A stretch of 64,000 nucleotides of DNA from Acidobacteriota bacterium (lineage in GTDB: Bacteria > Acidobacteriota > Blastocatellia > RBC074), in contig JAFDVL010000046.1 in NCBI GenBank assembly GCA_018268995.1, forward strand, positions 117,715 to 181,714, in the 5' to 3' direction. A model generated the notes under the pieces. The model had not been told where the DNA came from and did no database searches. It saw nothing but the letters and a program-made list of their open reading frames with translations. Numbering within the stretch: the stretch's first letter is position 1; every line of letters starts with the position of its first letter. Below, piece after piece: positions 2,884 through 62,807 of the stretch. A program made the translations under genes and the position numbers.

Positions 2884-3224
2884 AAATTTCCTCCCGTGAA
2901 TTGCCCCACCTATGGGCATCAGGAATAAAAGCTTAACGATAAAGCCCTACGCGATACACGTATCGCTTTGCCGATAAACCTGGGGGTTAATATGGATTGT
3001 TGATACGGATTCTGACCTCGTTGTCAGAATAGAATTCCCAGCAAAGTAACGTATTTGTCTTCAGGTCGGTATGTGTCGTCTTATCTTGCCTGAAGATCGT
3101 TTGGATAGTGTGAATAACTAACGAGTAGGGAAGGTACGATGCTTCAGATTGCTTTAGGCGTTACGACACGTATAATACAGTTACTTGAATTAATGCTGGG
3201 AAAATCAATGGTTAGAGGCTTGCA

Positions 3225-55522: not shown

Positions 55523-56302
55523 TTACTTGATCTGGGAATACGCCGTAGGTCGCAAGAACGAGCCATAGATATTCGATACGGCTTCGGGGTCTGTCCAGCC
55601 GGGCATCACGCGGATTTTCTTGAACGCTTCACTATTGATGAACGTCGCCCAGCATTTATCACGAGATGCCATGTCATCAAACGCCACCATATAAGTCAGC
55701 GCAGGCTGGCGCGTCCCAATCACACTTTCACCAAAGAAAATTGGGGCAAAGCCGGAATCGCGGAAGATTTTGATTTCTTCCTTATTGAACATGTCCAGCT
55801 TGGCTTTGAGCGAGAAATGATTGCGCGATTCGTACGTGCGCAGCTCAAACAATCGCGGCGCTTTGCCAGGAGCGGGAATTTCCGTTTTCAAATGTCCATC
55901 AAAGGCTTTGAGCAACGCGGATTCATACCGCACATACGGCATTTCAGTGGTGGCTTCAAACTCCTGCCACGCTTTCATGAATTCTTTGTCCGCTTCCATT
56001 CGCGCGTTGGCCGCCTGCATTTCACCAAGCGATTTGTGGTCAATGAACACCATCAGCGAAGGCGTATATTGCCCGGATGCAACGGTGAAACAACCGACGG
56101 GGCCAAAGTCCTGTCGCTTCGCCATCGGCAAAAAAGACTGCTGAAAAAAGTCGTGAATGCGTTTGGTGTTGATGTCATTGCGCAATTGATACGTGCGCAG
56201 TTCGTAGTAGTGATTGCCTTCAGCGGCAGCATTTGTAGTCAAGGTGGTAGCTCCTGTGAATCCGGCAGCGAGGCCGGTTTTGAGAATGTTGCGGCGGTTC
56301 AT
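55523..56302 (-). CDS. NIPSNAP-family protein with a Tat signal peptide
   Basis: MNRRNILKTGLAAGFTGA is a twin-arginine signal. Two NIPSNAP-like halves follow (YELRTYQL... and LFELRTYES...). Confidence 0.7.
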   Translation of the reverse strand: MNRRNILKTGLAAGFTGATTLTTNAAAEGNHYYELRTYQLRNDINTKRIHDFFQQSFLPMAKRQDFGPVGCFTVASGQYTPSLMVFIDHKSLGEMQAANARMEADKEFMKAWQEFEATTEMPYVRYESALLKAFDGHLKTEIPAPGKAPRLFELRTYESRNHFSLKAKLDMFNKEEIKIFRDSGFAPIFFGESVIGTRQPALTYMVAFDDMASRDKCWATFINSEAFKKIRVMPGWTDPEAVSNIYGSFLRPTAYSQIK

Positions 56303-56320
56303 GAAATGATCCTTTCAAAA

Positions 56321-56570
56321 TTCATTTTGTCGTCAACAGTGACCGACAATATAGTCCAGCGAGCATCCTTCATTTTGTCGCTGAAAGCGACGCACAATAT
56401 AGCCCAGCGAGAATCGCTGGGAAAGCGGTACAACGGGATTCCGTCGCTGAAGGCGACAAACAAAATGCCAAGGTTGAATTTGTTGCTCGCCTTCAGCGAG
56501 CGGGCGTTTATTGATCGTCTACCCAGCGCTCCTCGCTGGGCTATGTTGTTGGTCGCCTTCAGCGACTCAA
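56321..56570. repeat. REP/BIME cluster 1, with about 4 units in both orientations
   Basis: The unit is GTCGCTGAAGGCGAC (a 5-bp-stem palindrome) plus (C)AACAATATAGCCCAGCGAG-GATCGCTGGG. Forward copies lie at ~56377-56421 and 56442-56456, and a reverse copy at 56521-56566. The cluster abuts the RAYT gene. Confidence 0.7.
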
Positions 56571-57019
56571 TCCCACACATATCGTTCATCATATTCAATC
56601 TCACATTGCTGCAAAAACGAACGATACTCGTCCTGAAAATCCTGTTTCGCGTGATGGTGTTTTTGTTGTTTGATGTAATTCATAACGACGTCAACCTGTG
56701 ATTGCCCAACAGAAAACGCCCCATAGCCTTTTTGCCAATAAAAATCGGCAAATTTTGTGTCTTGCTCTTTCATCCAACTGGAGCTATTGCGTTTGATGTC
56801 GCCAATCAATTCGGACAAATCAATTTTCTTCGGCAATGAAACCAACAGATGAATGTGGTTCGTTGTGCCATTCGCAATCATCAATTTCGCGCCATTGTTT
56901 TCAACGATGCCGTGAATATAGCCGAACAATTCATGTTCGATTTCAGGGGTAATCAAATCCGCCCGATGTTTCGTAGAGAAAACAATATGCGCCAGAAGTT
57001 TGTATAGTGATTGTGGCAT
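56567..57019 (-). mobile_element. REP-associated tyrosine transposase (RAYT), IS200/IS605 TnpA-like Y1 HUH enzyme
   Basis: 150 aa. HUH motif NHIHLLVS, catalytic Tyr region VVMNYIKQQ, and an IS200-like core (YKLLAHIVFSTKHR). It is flanked on both sides by REP clusters. Confidence 0.8.
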
Positions 57020-57149
57020 CGGTATCAGCCTCTATTTATTGAGAATCCAAATGTAAACGTCAATGTCATTGGTGCAGTCGTGTCGTTATGAATCGAAACG
57101 TAAGCCCCATTGTTATTGCAGCAATGGTATTTTGTCGCCAAGTCATTGA

Positions 57150-57360
57150 ATTGTATTTTGTCGCCAACGGCGACTAACAATATAGCCCAGCGAGGATCGC
57201 TGGGAAAGCAAGGCCGTGTGATCCTGTCGCTGAAGGCGACAAACAATCTAAACCTAATTGATGGCGGCGTATTTGTTGCTCGCCTACAGCGAGCGGGTGT
57301 TGGTTGATTGCCTACCCAGCGATGCTCGCTGGGCTATATTGTTGGTCGCTTTCAGCGACG
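57150..57360. repeat. REP/BIME cluster 2
   Basis: GTCGCCAACGGCGAC-TAACAATATAGCCCAGCGAGGATCGCTGGG at 57159-57203. GTCGCTGAAGGCGAC at 57226-57240. A reverse unit ACCCAGCGATGCTCGCTGGGCTATATTGTTGGTCGCTTTCAGCGAC at 57313-57358. Confidence 0.7.
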
Positions 57361-57449
57361 GCGAATAAGGTGCTTGAGAATTTTGATTGCTGGATTACGC
57401 GCCTAAAATCAATTGCTAACGGCGAACGATTTGTTGCCAAACGTTTTTT

Positions 57450-60400
57450 CTAGGTTGCAATAATTTCTCGGACCAAATCATCAATTTCCTGCATCTCGAC
57501 GGTCATTTGATTTTTGATTTCAACGCGGAGGCGACCTAACCGACCGGGCGTCAAATCGCCTGCGGGTGGATTTGTGCGCAGGTATTGCGCGGCTTGTTGA
57601 TGCGCGGTTTCGCTTAACTGGGCAAGGCGCAAATGCACCTCATTGGCGGGATCAAAGCGCGGGAAATAAACATCAAGGATTTTTTTGTGGATGTCCCGCG
57701 CGCCAAATAATCCACGCGACTGAAAATCTTTCATCATTTCGTTGGGCGCAGATGAATTCAAAATTGCAGTCAAATAATAAGCCTCTTGTTGGTTGAATGT
57801 TTCGCAAACATAAGCCTTATGGTCAACGATAAATTCAAAATCATAATCGTTGCGATTGACGACGGTAGCGTTGGCATCTGTTGCCGAGGAATTGTAAAGC
57901 ACCAGATGTGGCGCATTGAGATTTTGTTCTGTTAATTTGCTTTGCCAATTCAGCCACGTTTTCAAAATCACATCTTGGTTGTTTTCGGTTTTGCGTTCTT
58001 CCCAAATTTTCTCCGCTGCGGCAAACCAGCGAGCTGTATGCAAAAAACCTTCTGCTCTTAACTCGTCCGCCGTGTGCAGCACAATCGCTTTATCGCCGTT
58101 GTCTTTTTGCCTGATGATGAGTGGCAGCGTGACAAGGTTGGGCTGAAAAAGCGTAAACGGCAAAATGCTTTTGGATAATGCCGTGCGAAAAAGAAAGCGG
58201 CTCTCGACGCGACCTTTGAGATCAATGTTTGTCCACGGTTTTTTGGCGTCAATCGTCGGAGAAGTTCTGATATTGATAATGCGGTCGGTAAAATCAGGCG
58301 GCAATTGTTGCGCAATGTCTACAAAATAAAACGAACGCGGCACAATCGTTGCACCTTGTTTGAAAGCATCTTTATAGGGATTCGGTTTGTTATCTTCGGT
58401 TGGATGTCGCAAAGAGAGCGCCGACGATTTGCCTTGCTCAACATAAAACCATTCGGCATTAATTTCGGAGAGTTTGGATTCGACTGCCTGCCAGTTGCAA
58501 TTGTTTACTGGCAACTTTCCGCTAAAAGATTTTCCGGCAAAAGTGCGCGGGCTTGCATTCGTCGTACTATTTTTCTCGGCGAATAAAACGCAACTTGGCA
58601 CGCGAAATAATGGCGCTACGCCGTCCAAATCCCACGCCCCTGTTAATGAAAAGCCTTTTGCTTTGCCGCTGCGTGTGTTGTCGTGATGATCCGCGCTGAA
58701 AAAGCTGCGTGGCAAAACAAACGCGATTTTGGCTCCATCAGAGTTGAGAAAATAGCTGCTGCAATAGGCCAGAAAAATTGCGGCAATTTCTAAATGTGGA
58801 TAATTCGCTTTGCGTTCAGGTTTCACGTCATATTCTTTGGCAAGCGTATCCAATACATTTTGATATTCCTGATTGCGAATTGAGCTGTACGTGAACCAAG
58901 GCGGATTGCCGATGACGTAATCGAATTTGTTAGCGAGAAAATAAGGCTTGTATAAGTTCTGTACGATGAATTTCCAAATGCTGTCGCGTCCGGCTTCCTT
59001 CACCTTTTTCAAGCCGCGATAAATTTCATAAAAGCTGTGCGCGATGGATTCAGGAATTTCGCTGCGATGGCATTGCGTTTTTAAGATGTTGGCGAAGGTT
59101 TTGAGTGATTCATCTTTGCGCTTTTGGGTTTGCGTTGCCAATTCTTCGCAGACGCTCAAGGCATCATCAAACAATGCCATATCCTCAAAAATATCCATCT
59201 GTAGCGCATAGCGATCTTTATCAATTTGCAGCAAAAATTCATTGCCGAACAGCGACTCTACGCCTTTGGGGGCGAGCAATGTGTTTGCCAAAACGATATT
59301 CAAATGGAGCGGCCTTTTAGCGTTGATGATTGCTTTTCCATACGCCAGGAGCAGCGTCGTTTTCGCAATTTGCACGGACAACGGGTGAATATCAATGCCG
59401 TGAATTTGTTCGTTGAGTTCTTCGATTGTGACATTGGCATGCAAGGTTTTGATCCGATGAATCACTGCACGTAAAAACGAACCGCTGCCGCAGGATGGAT
59501 CAAGAATTTTGTCAGTTGGTTTGAAATCAAATTCTCTGACCACCCGTTCACATAACCAATCAGGCGTGTAATATTCGCCGAGCGCGTGGCGCGTGTCCAA
59601 ATCAATTAATTCCTGATAGACGCCTTTCAGAATGTCTTCGTCAACATTATGAAAATCGAAGGCGGACAGTTCCTGCGCAATGAGTCGAAAGACCTGTTTG
59701 AGCGTTGGGAAACTTTGTTCGTTTTGAATCCAGTAATAAAAATCGTTCTCAACAAAATTGCTGATGTTGTAGCTCTGAAAAATCGAGCCATCAATAATCT
59801 CGCGCATTTCGTTGTCATCAATGTAATCGTCATTGGAGACAACCTTGTACGCCAGCATTTTGGCAAAGACGCTGAGATATGTGTGGATCAAAAAATTATC
59901 TTCCGTCGCCACATACGAACCATACGCTACGCTCAGGAAACGATTCCATTGCTCAAATGAAACCTGTATTTCGCCGCCGTCTCGGACAGCACGAAAATTC
60001 TTTTTCATTTCACGAAAGCACTGAATAAAAACGTAGCTTTGATAGCCGAACGCTTCCTCAATTCGTTTGAGTGAAGCCTTTTGCTTTTCTTCTTTGAAAA
60101 GAAAACGATCTATCCAGTAGTAAAAATCTTCTGTGTTGTATTCGGTCAATGTGAAAGACGCGCTTTCCACTTCATTTAGAATTAGCTCGTGTTCCTTGAG
60201 GGTTTCCAATTTATCCAGACAGGAAACATCCGGCGCGTACACTTTCCAAGTGATGAAATCCGAAGCAATCAATGTAAAATTATAGCCTTCGCCAGAATTG
60301 AACTGTCCTAACAAGTACCCCGCCAATTGTTCTTTCGCGTGGCTGAGCGTTTTCTTCAGGTCATTTTCAAACTCAATAATGATTTTATTGTAGAGCGTAT

Positions 60401-60608
60401 CCGCGCTACCGCGATGCATTTTGTCTTTGCGCGGGATGTTGACAATAGATGCTTCTGCCCCACTGCTAATGGCATCAATCACTTTTTTTGTTTCGGTAGT
60501 TTCAGCGTACAGGCGATTGAGCAAATCTTTGAATGCTTCTTTTTTGGTGAGTTCTTTATTGGCAGATTTTATCTTTTGCCGATATTCACGGATCAGTTCC
60601 AAATTCAT
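57450..60608 (-). CDS. MmeI-like Type IIL (IIG/IIC) single-chain restriction-modification enzyme: N-terminal nuclease, gamma-class N6-adenine methyltransferase, C-terminal target-recognition domain
   Basis: 1052 aa. Methyltransferase motif X-like LGEYYTPDWL, motif I ILDPSCGSGSFL, an MmeI-like segment QIHGIDIHPLSVQIAKTTLLL, and motif IV VIGNPPWF. The N-terminus has D-x9-E-F-E (SADTLYNKIIIEFENDLKK) at the position of the MmeI D-x9-E-x-K nuclease motif. No separate S or R subunit genes are present. Confidence 0.75.
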   Translation of the reverse strand: MNLELIREYRQKIKSANKELTKKEAFKDLLNRLYAETTETKKVIDAISSGAEASIVNIPRKDKMHRGSADTLYNKIIIEFENDLKKTLSHAKEQLAGYLLGQFNSGEGYNFTLIASDFITWKVYAPDVSCLDKLETLKEHELILNEVESASFTLTEYNTEDFYYWIDRFLFKEEKQKASLKRIEEAFGYQSYVFIQCFREMKKNFRAVRDGGEIQVSFEQWNRFLSVAYGSYVATEDNFLIHTYLSVFAKMLAYKVVSNDDYIDDNEMREIIDGSIFQSYNISNFVENDFYYWIQNEQSFPTLKQVFRLIAQELSAFDFHNVDEDILKGVYQELIDLDTRHALGEYYTPDWLCERVVREFDFKPTDKILDPSCGSGSFLRAVIHRIKTLHANVTIEELNEQIHGIDIHPLSVQIAKTTLLLAYGKAIINAKRPLHLNIVLANTLLAPKGVESLFGNEFLLQIDKDRYALQMDIFEDMALFDDALSVCEELATQTQKRKDESLKTFANILKTQCHRSEIPESIAHSFYEIYRGLKKVKEAGRDSIWKFIVQNLYKPYFLANKFDYVIGNPPWFTYSSIRNQEYQNVLDTLAKEYDVKPERKANYPHLEIAAIFLAYCSSYFLNSDGAKIAFVLPRSFFSADHHDNTRSGKAKGFSLTGAWDLDGVAPLFRVPSCVLFAEKNSTTNASPRTFAGKSFSGKLPVNNCNWQAVESKLSEINAEWFYVEQGKSSALSLRHPTEDNKPNPYKDAFKQGATIVPRSFYFVDIAQQLPPDFTDRIINIRTSPTIDAKKPWTNIDLKGRVESRFLFRTALSKSILPFTLFQPNLVTLPLIIRQKDNGDKAIVLHTADELRAEGFLHTARWFAAAEKIWEERKTENNQDVILKTWLNWQSKLTEQNLNAPHLVLYNSSATDANATVVNRNDYDFEFIVDHKAYVCETFNQQEAYYLTAILNSSAPNEMMKDFQSRGLFGARDIHKKILDVYFPRFDPANEVHLRLAQLSETAHQQAAQYLRTNPPAGDLTPGRLGRLRVEIKNQMTVEMQEIDDLVREIIAT

Positions 60609-60740
60609 AGCTTATGTTTTCTCCGAAGGTAAAGTTTGACAGTTGTGGGTTCGGATTGAACTGAAGAGGGTTTCTATCACGAAACTAAAACGAAACTCAA
60701 AGTAGATAGTTGCTGTTGCCAACGAAGTTGGTAAGTAAAT

Positions 60741-60950
60741 GTCGCTGAAAGCGACCGACAATATAGCCTGGCGAGGATCGCCAGGAAAGTTGCCACAGAG
60801 CATCTGCTCGCTGAAGGCGAGCCACAGTAAGTACGCCGAATTTCCTGCACTTTTGTGCGTCGCCTTCAGCGACAGATTCTTTTGGAATCATCACACCCAG
60901 CGATGCTCGCTGGGCTATATTGTGCGTCGCCTTCAGCGACTGTGTGACGT
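60741..60950. repeat. REP/BIME cluster 3
   Basis: GTCGCTGAAAGCGAC-CGACAATATAGCCTGGCGAGGATCGCCAGG at 60741-60785. CTCGCTGAAGGCGAG. GTCGCCTTCAGCGAC at 60870-60884. A reverse unit ACCCAGCGATGCTCGCTGGGCTATATTGTGCGTCGCCTTCAGCGAC ends at 60950. Confidence 0.7.
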
Positions 60951-61049
60951 TCAAATTTCATCTCTCTCTTGCCAATTCGCGGTTCGTCTCGTTAAATGAC
61001 AACCGCATTCCAAATACGTTCACTCGTAACCAAACAGACATGCAAACTT

Positions 61050-62807
61050 ATGAACCTTGCAACATTGTTTCGCAGAAAATCCGTTGAGCAAATTCAACTC
61101 GACGCCGCACGGGGCCTGGGCGATGGAGAAGGTGGCGGGGGGTTGAAAAAAGCGCTCGGCGTGGTAGACCTCACCGCACTTGGCATTGCTGCCGTGATCG
61201 GTGCCGGGATTTTTTCGACCATTGGCAATGCCGCGTACAACGGCGGGCCAGCGGTAGCATTTTTATTTATCTTCACCGCGATTGCCTGTGCGTTCGCTGC
61301 TTTGTGCTATGCCGAATTCGCTTCGATGATTCCGGTGGCGGGCTCGGCGTACACGTATGCCTATGCTTCGTTCGGCGAACTGGTCGCGTGGATCATCGGC
61401 TGGGATTTGTTGATGGAATACGCCATCGGCAACATCGCCGTAGCGATTTCATGGAGCGATTATTTTACGTCGTTGCTCGCGGGCTATGGCGTCAACATCC
61501 CGCAGTATTTGACGATGGATTTTCTAACGGCATCGCGCGGGTTCGACAAGGTAGATGCCTTGTTGAAGGCGGGACAAACGTTGGATCAAATCAATGCTAC
61601 GGAAGGGATCGGCAATGCCGTGGCCGCTCATCAGGCGTGGACAACTGCGCCAATACTCGGTGGCTTTCATTTGGTGTGTGACCTGCCCGCCCTGGTCATT
61701 GTGTTCATCATCACTGCCCTGGTGTTCGTCGGTATCAAAGAATCCAAGAACGCCTCGAACATTATGGTAGCGATCAAGCTGGCCGTGATCTTTTTCGTCA
61801 TCGTGCTCGGCGCGTTTTATGTGAAGCCGGGCAACTGGTCGCCCTTTGCTCCGAACGGCGTGGCCGGCGTGCTGAAAGGCGTGAGCGCCGTGTTCTTTGC
61901 CTACATCGGCTTCGATGCGATTTCGACGACTGCCGAAGAATGCAAGGACCCGCAGCGTGATTTGCCGAAGGGGATGATTTATTCGCTGATCATCTGCACG
62001 ATTTTGTACGTGCTGATTGCGTTGGTGCTGACGGGGATGGTCAGTTACAAAGAACTTGCTGTCGGCGATCCGCTGGCGTATGTATTTGCCAAAGTTGGCG
62101 CGAACTGGATTGCAGGCATCATCGCGATCAGTGCGGTGATTGCAATGGCAACCGTGCTACTGGTCTTTCAGCTTGGACAGCCGCGCATCTGGATGACAAT
62201 GAGCCGCGATGGCCTGTTGCCACCAATCTTTGCTGCAATTCATCCGAAATTCAAAACGCCGTGGTTTTCGACGATTGTGACGGGGTTAGTGGTAGCGATT
62301 CCGTCGCTGTTTATGAACCTGACCGAAGTCACCGATTTGACCAGCATCGGTACTCTCTTCGCTTTCGTGCTGGTGTGTGGCGGCGTGCTGTTGTTGCAAA
62401 ACAATCAAAACATCGAACGAAAATTCAGAGCGCCTTACATCAACTCAAAATTCATTGCACCTGCGTTGTTCATTCTGATCTGGCTCGGCTTTATTTTGTT
62501 CAAGCCCGAAGCGATTTCCTCGTTATTTGCGATGACTGACCCCGCGAATCCGACCGAAACCGGCTGGGAAGTCTTCAAGCATAAAATCCCGCTGCTCGGC
62601 TTTATCGTGATTGCGACGATTCTGGTGGTGCAATGCTTCCGTAAATCGTTGTCGTTGATTCCCGTGCTGGGCGTGCTGACGTGCGGATATTTGATGACAG
62701 AGCTTGGTTGGACGAACTGGTATCGGTTTGTCATCTGGCTAATGATTGGATTGGTGATTTATTTTCTGTATAGCTATCGGCACAGCAAATTGGCGAGAGT
62801 GTCATGA
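61050..62807 (+). CDS. APC-superfamily amino-acid permease (cationic amino acid transporter-like)
   Basis: Start taken at the ATG at 61050 (MNLATLFRRKSVEQ). The protein has 12-14 transmembrane segments and APC signature regions (GIAAVIGAGIFSTIG, FAYIGFDAISTTAEE). Confidence 0.85.
   Translation: MNLATLFRRKSVEQIQLDAARGLGDGEGGGGLKKALGVVDLTALGIAAVIGAGIFSTIGNAAYNGGPAVAFLFIFTAIACAFAALCYAEFASMIPVAGSAYTYAYASFGELVAWIIGWDLLMEYAIGNIAVAISWSDYFTSLLAGYGVNIPQYLTMDFLTASRGFDKVDALLKAGQTLDQINATEGIGNAVAAHQAWTTAPILGGFHLVCDLPALVIVFIITALVFVGIKESKNASNIMVAIKLAVIFFVIVLGAFYVKPGNWSPFAPNGVAGVLKGVSAVFFAYIGFDAISTTAEECKDPQRDLPKGMIYSLIICTILYVLIALVLTGMVSYKELAVGDPLAYVFAKVGANWIAGIIAISAVIAMATVLLVFQLGQPRIWMTMSRDGLLPPIFAAIHPKFKTPWFSTIVTGLVVAIPSLFMNLTEVTDLTSIGTLFAFVLVCGGVLLLQNNQNIERKFRAPYINSKFIAPALFILIWLGFILFKPEAISSLFAMTDPANPTETGWEVFKHKIPLLGFIVIATILVVQCFRKSLSLIPVLGVLTCGYLMTELGWTNWYRFVIWLMIGLVIYFLYSYRHSKLARVS

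Follow-up and report, generated by a model that had tools for sequence, protein, structure and literature searches.

Almost all that is known of partnerships between transposases and repetitive extragenic palindromic sequences (REPs), or the inverted REP doublets known as REPINs, comes from work on Proteobacteria and their class 2 REP-associated tyrosine transposases (RAYTs). Subclass 1.2 of the TnpA-Y1 transposases, characterised in the survey of Quentin et al. 2018 by a WQ motif, the sequence YIKNQKEHH, a median length of 148 aa and low copy number, was found mainly in Cyanobacteria and Bacteroidetes and entered there as 'REP: no' (PMC6006769). TIRtrons, reported in Acidobacteria, have moderately abundant repeat families that occur as dimers or clusters and are in some cases double-palindromic (Di Nocera et al. 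2013, PMC3733652), and the general phenomenon is therefore already known. A motif filed in Rfam as Acido-Lenti-1 (RF01687) was rated as probably an RNA by Weinberg et al. 2010, who reported it from two phyla and remarked on its nearness to group II introns (PMC2864571). Here we describe a locus in a 64,000-nt stretch of an Acidobacteriota bacterium genome (Blastocatellia; assembly GCA_018268995.1, contig JAFDVL010000046.1, positions 117,715 to 181,714), in which an IS200-like Y1 transposase gene lies among three palindromic repeat clusters, next to a candidate restriction-modification (R-M) gene. The whole stretch is called the window, positions are counted from its first letter, and sequences compared with it carry L numbers.

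The locus is most likely the home site of a domesticated, single-copy IS200-like Y1/HUH transposase together with its non-autonomous repeats, and by analogy with related systems the transposase probably spreads these ~200-bp hairpin repeats around the genome. A first-pass annotation had read the locus as a RAYT-REP association; this reading is supported and extended, the additions being a two-hairpin REPIN, a transposase of subclass 1.2 and a relation of the repeat to Acido-Lenti-1.

Long palindromes on both sides of the transposase gene

The transposase gene (56567-57019, minus strand, 150 aa) matches Pfam Y1_Tnp at 9.5e-29, and its product has the residues N54-HIH57 (with the HUH motif H55-I-H57), W95Q96, Y115IKQQKHHH123 (Y115-x3-Q119) and a C-terminal tail ..YDERYVWD, which bears out its identification in the first-pass annotation as an IS200-like Y1 HUH transposase. 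The HUH motif and Y115 are conserved in 12 aligned homologues. A complete palindrome stands on either side of the gene, and a third lies beyond the R-M gene.

The clusters are each a single imperfect palindrome of ~200 nt, in the order A-B-A' and then A'-B-A. Hairpin A, in the window GTCGC-TGAAA-GCGAC or GTCGCC-AAC-GGCGAC, is followed by a linker ending in CAATATAG and then by the near-invariant hairpin B, CCCAGCGA-GNA-TCGCTGGG; a ~20-nt spacer leads to the inner part of the arm, made up of hairpin A' and AACAA, and a short centre separates this from the mirror-image arm. Cluster 1 (56377-56566) adjoins the transposase stop codon, its plus arm having hairpin A at 56377-56391, ATAG and hairpin B at 56399-56421 and hairpin A' at 56443-56457, and its minus arm hairpin A' at 56486-56500, hairpin B with CTAT at 56522-56544 and hairpin A at 56552-56566. 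The same order is seen in cluster 2 (57160-57359), with 57160-57174, 57182-57204 and 57226-57240 on the plus arm and 57279-57293, 57315-57337 and 57345-57359 on the minus arm, and in cluster 3 (60741-60940), with 60741-60755, 60763-60785 and 60807-60821 on the plus arm and 60859-60873, 60896-60918 and 60926-60940 on the minus arm. The left-arm hairpin B of cluster 3 is a variant, CCTGGCG..CGCCAGG, with two compensatory pair changes.

A search of the window with the 27-mer CAATATAGCCCAGCGAGGATCGCTGGG (up to 3 mismatches) found 5 sites, all within 56395-60922, compared with 0 in shuffles, and the 15-mer GTCGCTGAAGGCGAC (up to 2 mismatches) found 10, all within 56377-60940, where 0.16 were expected. 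Folded as single-stranded DNA (ssDNA), each cluster gives one long hairpin, at -67.7, -67.1 and -63.7 kcal/mol for clusters 1, 2 and 3, with z-scores of -10.5, -10.0 and -10.0 (shuffles average about -31 kcal/mol). The starts of the two hairpins B are 123-133 nt apart in the window; in relatives the distance is 114-119 nt. All three clusters lie where the first-pass annotation had placed them, and the ~45-bp palindromic unit is present in both orientations; beyond that, each cluster is a single palindrome with REPIN anatomy, an inverted REP doublet with a short spacer that folds into a single long hairpin, and not a loose cluster of units.

The repeat family in related genomes

A collection with a single representative genome for each species, which excludes the window's own species and in which copy counts are lower bounds, was searched for an exact 20-base pattern made up of ATAG and hairpin B with its loop left free. 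The pattern was found in 116 stretches, compared with ~1 expected by chance (computed from the collection size), mainly in Pyrinomonadaceae/Blastocatellia genome bins. Nineteen separate stretches with 38 hairpin-B units and one transposase locus come from the JANNYB bin, and 8 stretches with 15 units from the JANPDZ bin. The full ~205-nt palindrome aligns to the copies of relatives at 71-76% identity. In these related genomes the repeats are dispersed, multi-copy and extragenic, the longest open frame over hairpin B having a median of 252 nt compared with 1092 nt at random positions of the same loci.

Both hairpins covary. In hairpin B, C-G to T-A compensatory changes are seen in 24 of 142 distinct acidobacterial units, and units from the Planctomycetes-Verrucomicrobia-Chlamydiae (PVC) group show A-T to G-C; its loop is GNA in 141 of 142 distinct units. 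Pairing in hairpin A reaches 97.4%, compared with 78% when partners are shuffled, all six of its pairs show at least two Watson-Crick types, and its variants differ by lineage (GTCGCC/GGCGAC, GTCATC/GATGAC, GACCCC/GGGGTC, CACCCC/GGGGTG and others). Conservation acts on structure more than on sequence. The linker consensus AACAt(t/c)ATAG places a conserved ATAG foot immediately 5' of hairpin B, one base off the GTAG of classical REPs, so that the 5' tetranucleotide that the first-pass annotation had proposed to compare with the RAYT class has a close counterpart here. Wobble pairs number 31 G-T and 10 A-C, favouring the ATAG strand; with half of the G-T pairs at one possibly-loop position and copies that are non-independent, the asymmetry is suggestive only of ATAG as the functional strand.

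In PVC genomes, hairpin-B variants beginning CCCAGCGA.., CCCAGGCA.. and CCTGGGGT.. stand side by side near the transposase (L078 1300-1630; L066 4612-4640 and 5322-5346; L011 816-860), all with a CATCATAG-type foot and a hairpin A of GACCCC/GGGGTC type. A ~100-nt near-perfect palindrome of unrelated sequence, matched by plant microRNA models on both strands, was seen at L109 4844-4973 and may be another repeat family in that genome.

Class, surroundings and inheritance of the transposase

By its Y---Q--HH signature, its WQ motif, its length of 150 aa and a C-terminal tail common to all homologues, the transposase carries the mark of TnpA-Y1 subclass 1.2, an assignment made by signature only, against Table 1 of PMC6006769. 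Its HUH motif departs from the DH[IV]H of that subclass, being NH[IV]H in the window protein and its Pyrinomonadaceae orthologues; four of five PVC homologues have DH[VF]H and the fifth, in L078, has EHIH. The YxxxNP motif of class 2 RAYTs is absent, with Y-x3-Q in its place.

Orthologues with 67-76% identity were found in eight other Pyrinomonadaceae/Blastocatellia bins, each between convergent A-B-A' arms, with the plus arm upstream and the minus arm downstream, such that the gene occupies the centre of one palindrome (for example L109 903-1520, L023 3469-4086, L061 and L093; no simple rearrangement links this layout with that of the window). The same inverted arms and the same hairpin B flank three ~40%-identical homologues, from bins of Victivallales, Kiritimatiellia and Verrucomicrobiota. 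With a multi-copy extragenic family in relatives and eight orthologues flanked by inverted units, the proposed RAYT-REP association is supported. As the gene sits centrally in one palindrome in these relatives, gene-less palindromes look like internal-deletion derivatives of a gene-carrying element.

Gene order around the locus is kept in L125-L127 (84% nt identity) and in L144, a third lineage (GCA_009612815.1, WBZS01000012.1), which reads permease, palindrome, R-M gene, palindromes, truncated transposase, palindrome, NIPSNAP. In L144 (13256-14524) the transposase is a 97-aa remnant, cluster 2, between this remnant and the R-M gene, differs in copy number from that of the window and has expanded from ~200 to ~500 bp, and a gene for an RlmF-like RNA methyltransferase (Methyltransf_10) lies between the last palindrome (cluster 1) and NIPSNAP. 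Structural variation at this locus is seen at the repeats.

An ordinary active IS200/IS605 insertion sequence, with the palindromes as its ends and debris, could account for part of this picture: the NCBIfam equivalog model transpos_IS200 (NF033573) scores 78.4 bits against a cutoff of 55, the Y-x3-Q motif fits, the gene lies inside a pair of terminal arms in relatives, much like a transposon, and orthologues at 67-79% identity are found in different neighbourhoods. At the same time, the window holds one copy of the gene (a second was searched for there and none was found), and the draft bins, from which stretches were selected by repeat pattern, contain one transposase-bearing stretch each. 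Neither a tnpB nor a tnpB-sized open reading frame (ORF) lies beside the gene, synteny is kept at 84% nt identity and beyond, the arms are inverted where an insertion sequence would have its left and right ends on one strand, there are at least 19 palindromes without the gene for every copy of it, and both the Y---Q--HH signature and the C-terminal tail match subclass 1.2, which does not consist of insertion sequences. An active insertion sequence is thus very unlikely, and the transposase appears, from these sequence comparisons, to behave as a single-copy, vertically inherited gene. A second, divergent Y1 type, with DHIH and 42% identity to the window's transposase, is present in the Pyrinomonadaceae bin TH_ant_mag_190 (L101 2580-3032), 1.6 kb from a standard palindrome (787-950) and not directly flanked by it.

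Several observations weigh against a domesticated transposase with its own repeats. The remaining ~59 kb of the window is free of repeat copies, only three local clusters, all within the 64-kb window, being visible in the window's own genome, and dispersal is demonstrated only for relatives. The gene has a complete palindrome on each side in the window, L125 and L144, instead of lying inside one as in the distant orthologues. Orthologues at or below ~79% protein identity sit in different neighbourhoods, and the transposase gene therefore relocates over long timescales. The NCBIfam model REP_Tyr_transpos (NF047646) gives 25.2 bits, below its cutoff of 80, and the IS200/IS605 model is favoured instead. 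Some PVC homologues carry other two-hairpin units, without a match to RF01687. Finally, a flank-matching search among 136 clusters found no filled-versus-empty site of the kind that would demonstrate mobility of the palindromes.

The sequences show the anatomy of the repeats, the distribution of the family, its placement outside genes, the covariation of the hairpins, their joint occurrence with the transposase and the independence of the R-M gene; how the enzyme cuts, which strand it uses and how the repeats spread are inferred in the following scheme. The unit is composed of hairpin A, the linker ending in ATAG and hairpin B, and two inverted units with their inner hairpins make up the REPIN-like palindrome. 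The enzyme would bind hairpin B and its 5' ATAG foot on ssDNA, for example at a replication fork, cleave nearby through Tyr115 with the HUH metal site, and rejoin the ends. Palindromes might in this way be excised or copied to other intergenic sites, with the gene itself staying put. The analogy is with E. coli TnpA-REP and IS608 TnpA (PMC3333891, PMC8266576).

Relation of the repeat unit to Acido-Lenti-1

The repeat unit aligns across all 46 positions of RF01687, both helices included, on the strand opposite the ATAG reading, and shares its layout of two hairpins (8 bp and 5 bp) with a 12-nt linker beginning CUA. Scores in the window are 23.3 bits for cluster 1 (56376-56421), 21.2 and 20.4 for cluster 2 and 26.0 and 18.7 for cluster 3; elsewhere they reach 28.3 bits in L144, 35.0 and 35.2 on the two sides of the Victivallales homologue (L066) and 33.2 in L078. 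The Rfam gathering score is 37 bits, and at this threshold no match to Acido-Lenti-1 was found in 16 related loci, all matches being sub-threshold. The Rfam seed itself includes members with an identical CCCAGCGA/UCGCUGGG stem followed by GCUAU, a CCCAGCG stem with GCUAU being shared by four sequences, and by its coordinates the copies in the Lentisphaera araneosa genome are numerous and closely arrayed. On alignment and predicted structure, the repeat unit is a relative of Acido-Lenti-1.

Such a relation could also be taken to mean that the units are small structured RNA genes and that their link to the transposase is incidental, as the alignment covers the full model with both helices, both hairpins covary, and Weinberg et al. 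rated the motif 'probably an RNA' (PMC2864571). Several features of the units argue otherwise. They occur equally in both orientations, as inverted pairs, and therefore have no single transcript strand; they are multi-copy and clustered, also at the Rfam seed coordinates in Lentisphaera araneosa; they flank an ssDNA-transposase gene in two phyla; and they score under the Rfam cut-off. Their loops, moreover, are GNA or AAN triloops, which are typical of stable DNA mini-hairpins. Pairing in both orientations, the transposase link and the GNA triloops together fit a DNA repeat better than an RNA gene, and we regard small RNA genes with an incidental transposase as very unlikely, which leaves room for transcribed repeat copies that could act at the RNA level, by analogy with E. 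coli REPs.

Returning to the repeats as DNA partners of the transposase, we see about an even chance that this extends to Acido-Lenti-1 as such, that is, that the motif is an ssDNA REP/REPIN substrate of subclass 1.2 transposases and not an RNA gene, with an independent domesticated lineage maintaining repeat populations in Acidobacteriota and PVC, built on a two-hairpin module with an xTAG foot. At the PVC homologues in L150, L152 and L153 the two-hairpin units are different (foot CCAG, stem CCTAGGGC) and gave no RF01687 match; with the L150 and L152 units outside RF01687, the Rfam link therefore holds for part of the clade only. The gene in L150 (4896-5764, Lentisphaeria bin) is a 51%-identical homologue of the PVC transposase, and the unit that flanks it consists of GCGCC-AAC-GGCGC, a linker ..ACCAG and CCTAGGGC-AAC-GCCCTAGG, is repeated at least four times downstream and draws spurious microRNA-family matches. 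In L052 (Kiritimatiellaeota bin), a group II intron domain (RF02001, 98 bits) at 2394-2560 lies ~600 bp from a unit at 3126-3148, which echoes the remark of Weinberg et al. 2010.

The R-M gene as a neighbour of the repeat system

The R-M candidate (57450-60608, minus strand, 1052 aa) is a putative methyltransferase-nuclease fusion and, as had been noticed at first pass, lies between clusters 2 and 3, the only gene in the 3381-nt interval from the end of cluster 2 (57359) to the start of cluster 3 (60741). The protein has a gamma-class N6-adenine methyltransferase core with LDPSCGSGSF as motif I and NPPW as motif IV. Pfam finds N6_Mtase, Eco57I and a 57-residue MmeI_Mtase stretch (32.6 bits) inside the general methyltransferase core, and the PADLOC model REase_MTase_IIG (PDLC03630) matches residues 64-641 at 6.4e-72. 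The N-terminal, helical, target-recognition and C-terminal domains of MmeI were all absent from the protein at E up to 10, no recognisable nuclease or target-recognition domain was found in the domain search, and sequence and profile searches of the PDB returned only methyltransferase-core matches (Type I and orphan methyltransferases), with no MmeI-like relative. An AlphaFold2 model of the 1052-aa protein from a 20-sequence alignment (pLDDT 50.5, pTM 0.33) was too poor for use. The earlier label 'MmeI-like / Type IIL' is therefore not supported, the PADLOC match being to a Type IIG model and no MmeI-specific domain being present, and the gene is best treated as a Type IIG candidate on its sequence.

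The protein and its relatives form a ~1055-aa family with 64-75% identity between members from Acidobacteriota, Ignavibacteriota, Bacteroidota and Melioribacter (proteins P0121-P0240). This identity runs over the full length and takes in both the first 300 aa and the last 400 aa, neither of which matches a Pfam domain; an R-M enzyme that has a target-recognition region is not usually so well conserved. D70 ... E79-F-E81 are invariant in the family, at the place where MmeI-type enzymes presumably carry D...ExK.

The first-pass annotation had raised the possibility that REP/RAYT activity delimits the R-M gene or helped to mobilise it. In its fullest form this makes a composite element, with paired repeats as ends and the R-M gene as cargo moved or delimited by the transposase. 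The position of the R-M gene as sole occupant between clusters 2 and 3, repeated in L144 and in the contig L145, invites this reading, as do the lower GC of the R-M and transposase genes compared with their flanks (no other 3.2-kb segment of the window has a GC content as low as that of the R-M gene, 0.442 compared with a window median of 0.513) and the presence in each palindrome of a hairpin on both strands, by which two palindromes could in principle give same-strand ends. R-M copies elsewhere tell against it. Another Blastocatellia genome (L146) has a copy with 87% aa and 82.6% nt identity in an unrelated setting, where 23 kb contain no repeat unit; the homology of this copy to the window is confined to 60701-57441, the ORF plus 93 bp ahead of its start codon and 9 bp after its stop, which stops short of the window's repeat positions and means that the repeats are not part of the shared R-M DNA. 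The intergenic gaps beside this copy, of 82 and 22 bp, are too short for a repeat, and three further copies (L147-L149, 72% identical) are likewise without repeats. R-M loci without REPs had been named beforehand as an argument against mobilisation, and L146, at its unrelated locus, supplies that argument in spirit.

Between the window and L144, moreover, the R-M gene has 82.6% nt identity and the flanking genes 78-83%; a divergence equal to that of flanking housekeeping genes fits vertical descent at this site. The same repeats bracket lon, dnaN, pheS and a NIF3 homologue in other genomes, so that bracketing of the R-M gene is to be expected where palindromes fill the intergenic spaces near the transposase, and no second repeat-gene-repeat copy was seen. 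Because essential genes are bracketed likewise, repeat bracketing is not evidence of cargo mobilisation. A composite element is extremely improbable on this evidence; the R-M gene is independent of the repeats, a neighbour and not a part of the repeat system. It is probably a horizontally mobile gene that has stood beside the transposase since before the three lineages diverged, and the palindromes bordering it would be ordinary intergenic copies.

A different possibility is that the repeat clusters act as a hotspot of recombination or insertion, in which the R-M gene and others landed without being moved by the transposase. The three syntenic genomes differ exactly at the palindromes: an IS66 fragment truncates the R-M gene in L125, and L144 has the RlmF-like gene and the enlarged cluster 2; the R-M gene is also foreign in composition. 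This comparison nevertheless involves three genomes only, with no empty-site genome recovered by which gain could be told from loss, and a metagenome scan by NIPSNAP neighbour for a junction without the R-M gene yielded only a 1.2-kb contig and distant loci at 56% identity or less without transposase, R-M gene or permease. A hotspot remains the less probable account, with perhaps a modest chance of being right, compared with palindromes that are ordinary copies of a transposase-borne repeat family.

In L125 (1-2702, JGI Ga0394876_0027140), from the sister lineage, the R-M gene has lost its first 243 codons beside the IS66-family transposase fragment and has a frameshift near codon 636, and the Y1 transposase and both adjoining palindromes are intact. 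Small defence or toxin-antitoxin-like genes adjoin the repeats or transposase orthologues at L088 2836-3447, L110 5497-6225 and L128 233-496 (a Fic-like C domain with Schlafen AlbA_2, a DUF6088/AbiEi-like protein and a weak HEPN_AbiU2); these are too few for a trend, and housekeeping genes are bracketed too.

Borders of the locus and further features

The locus is bordered on the left by a NIPSNAP-family gene (55523-56302, minus strand) and on the right by an amino-acid permease (AAP) gene (60996-62807, plus strand), between which lie two minus-strand genes and the three repeat clusters. At the outer edge of cluster 1, 18 bp away from the NIPSNAP start codon, is a degenerate extra half-unit (56321-56367, plus) made of hairpin A, CAATATAG and half of hairpin B, 81% identical to the unit at 56369-56415. 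Cluster 2 is adjoined on its inner side by two direct copies of 19 nt, AATGGTATTTTGTCGCCAA and AATTGTATTTTGTCGCCAA (57123-57167, plus), of which the second enters hairpin A.

ORFs of 65-101 aa cross the palindromes (56299-56604 on the minus strand, 57025-57246, 57110-57307 and 60697-60999; also L001 10428-10721), and public assemblies annotate the one across cluster 1 as a gene of 97 aa. All of these are almost certainly false gene calls produced by the repeats. The short Logan contigs L005-L008, which carry an identical transposase, all start inside cluster 2, and at least one (L008) ends inside cluster 1, which shows that palindromes break short-read assemblies. We considered such contig ends as evidence of multiple copies and rejected them as such, as palindromes alone disrupt assembly.

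Relation to described systems

The locus would extend the lifestyle of the proteobacterial partnerships to Acidobacteriota and PVC, with a transposase of the IS200-proximal subclass 1.2, which had been surveyed as repeat-less. For Acido-Lenti-1, an orphan Rfam family and candidate small RNA since 2010, it offers a testable explanation in which the motif is better read as a DNA element and, if this is true, the family as a whole would be the repeat partner of subclass 1.2. A two-hairpin unit with one invariant hairpin plus foot and one covarying hairpin could be a clean substrate for studying target choice by Y1 enzymes, and the negative result for the R-M gene can serve as a control for similar claims of mobilisation.

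Type IIG enzymes (Eco57I-like, with MmeI as the Type IIL example) resemble the R-M candidate in being single chains of ~1000 aa with a gamma N6-adenine core. Compared with these enzymes, the R-M family is unusually conserved, at 64-75% identity across phyla, and compared with MmeI the window protein has no MmeI N-terminal, helical, target-recognition or C domain and no clear nuclease motif, having D70 ... E79-F-E81 instead of D...ExK.

The IS200/IS605 elements IS608 and ISDra2 share with the locus the fold family of the transposase, HUH, Y-x3-Q and, by analogy, what would be recognition of a hairpin plus foot on ssDNA. Their end hairpins, however, lie on the same strand, their copies are many and near-identical, and tnpB is often present; none of this is seen here. 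RF01687 (PMC2864571) resembles the window unit in its two-hairpin layout, its spacing, the GCUA (the TAGC foot) after the longer hairpin, its two host phyla, the CCCAGCGA/UCGCUGGG stems of some seed members and its many clustered copies per genome. Differences lie in the scores, which are 18.7-26 bits for the window copies where Rfam's gathering score is 37, in the loop of hairpin B, of 3 nt here and 4 nt in RF01687, and in the Rfam entry, which files a small RNA on the opposite strand and records no association with a transposase.

TIRtrons and their TIRYT transposases (Di Nocera et al. 2013, PMC3733652) resemble the locus in that a tyrosine transposase stands between long terminal inverted repeats; the link to an Rfam motif is absent from that report. 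The acidobacterial TIRYTs (Koribacter, Terriglobus and others) may correspond to class 3 of Quentin et al., the one that includes Acidobacteria. Subclass 1.2 as published (PMC6006769) agrees with the window protein in length (150 aa compared with a median of 148), in WQ, in YIKQQKHHH compared with YIKNQKEHH, in a conserved C-terminal tail ..DE[KR]YVWD, in low copy number and in the lack of insertion-sequence behaviour, and differs in that a clear repeat family is found here, in Acidobacteriota and PVC, with NHIH instead of DH[IV]H.

A further comparison is with the RAYT/REPIN systems (E. coli TnpA-REP with REP/BIME; the REPINs of Pseudomonas fluorescens; class 2 of Quentin, groups 2 and 3 of Bertels). 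They differ from the window in the YxxxNP motif, where the window protein has Y-x3-Q; in their unit, which here has two hairpins and an inner third; in palindrome length, ~100 nt compared with ~200 nt here; in copy number, hundreds there and tens seen here; and in host, here Acidobacteriota and PVC. In both, a Y1/HUH gene, which appears to be single-copy here, stands between inverted palindromic repeats that pair into long hairpins and that are extragenic and dispersed (here as seen in relatives), a tetranucleotide foot (ATAG here, GTAG there) stands 5' of the hairpin that is recognised, and gene and repeats appear to co-evolve.

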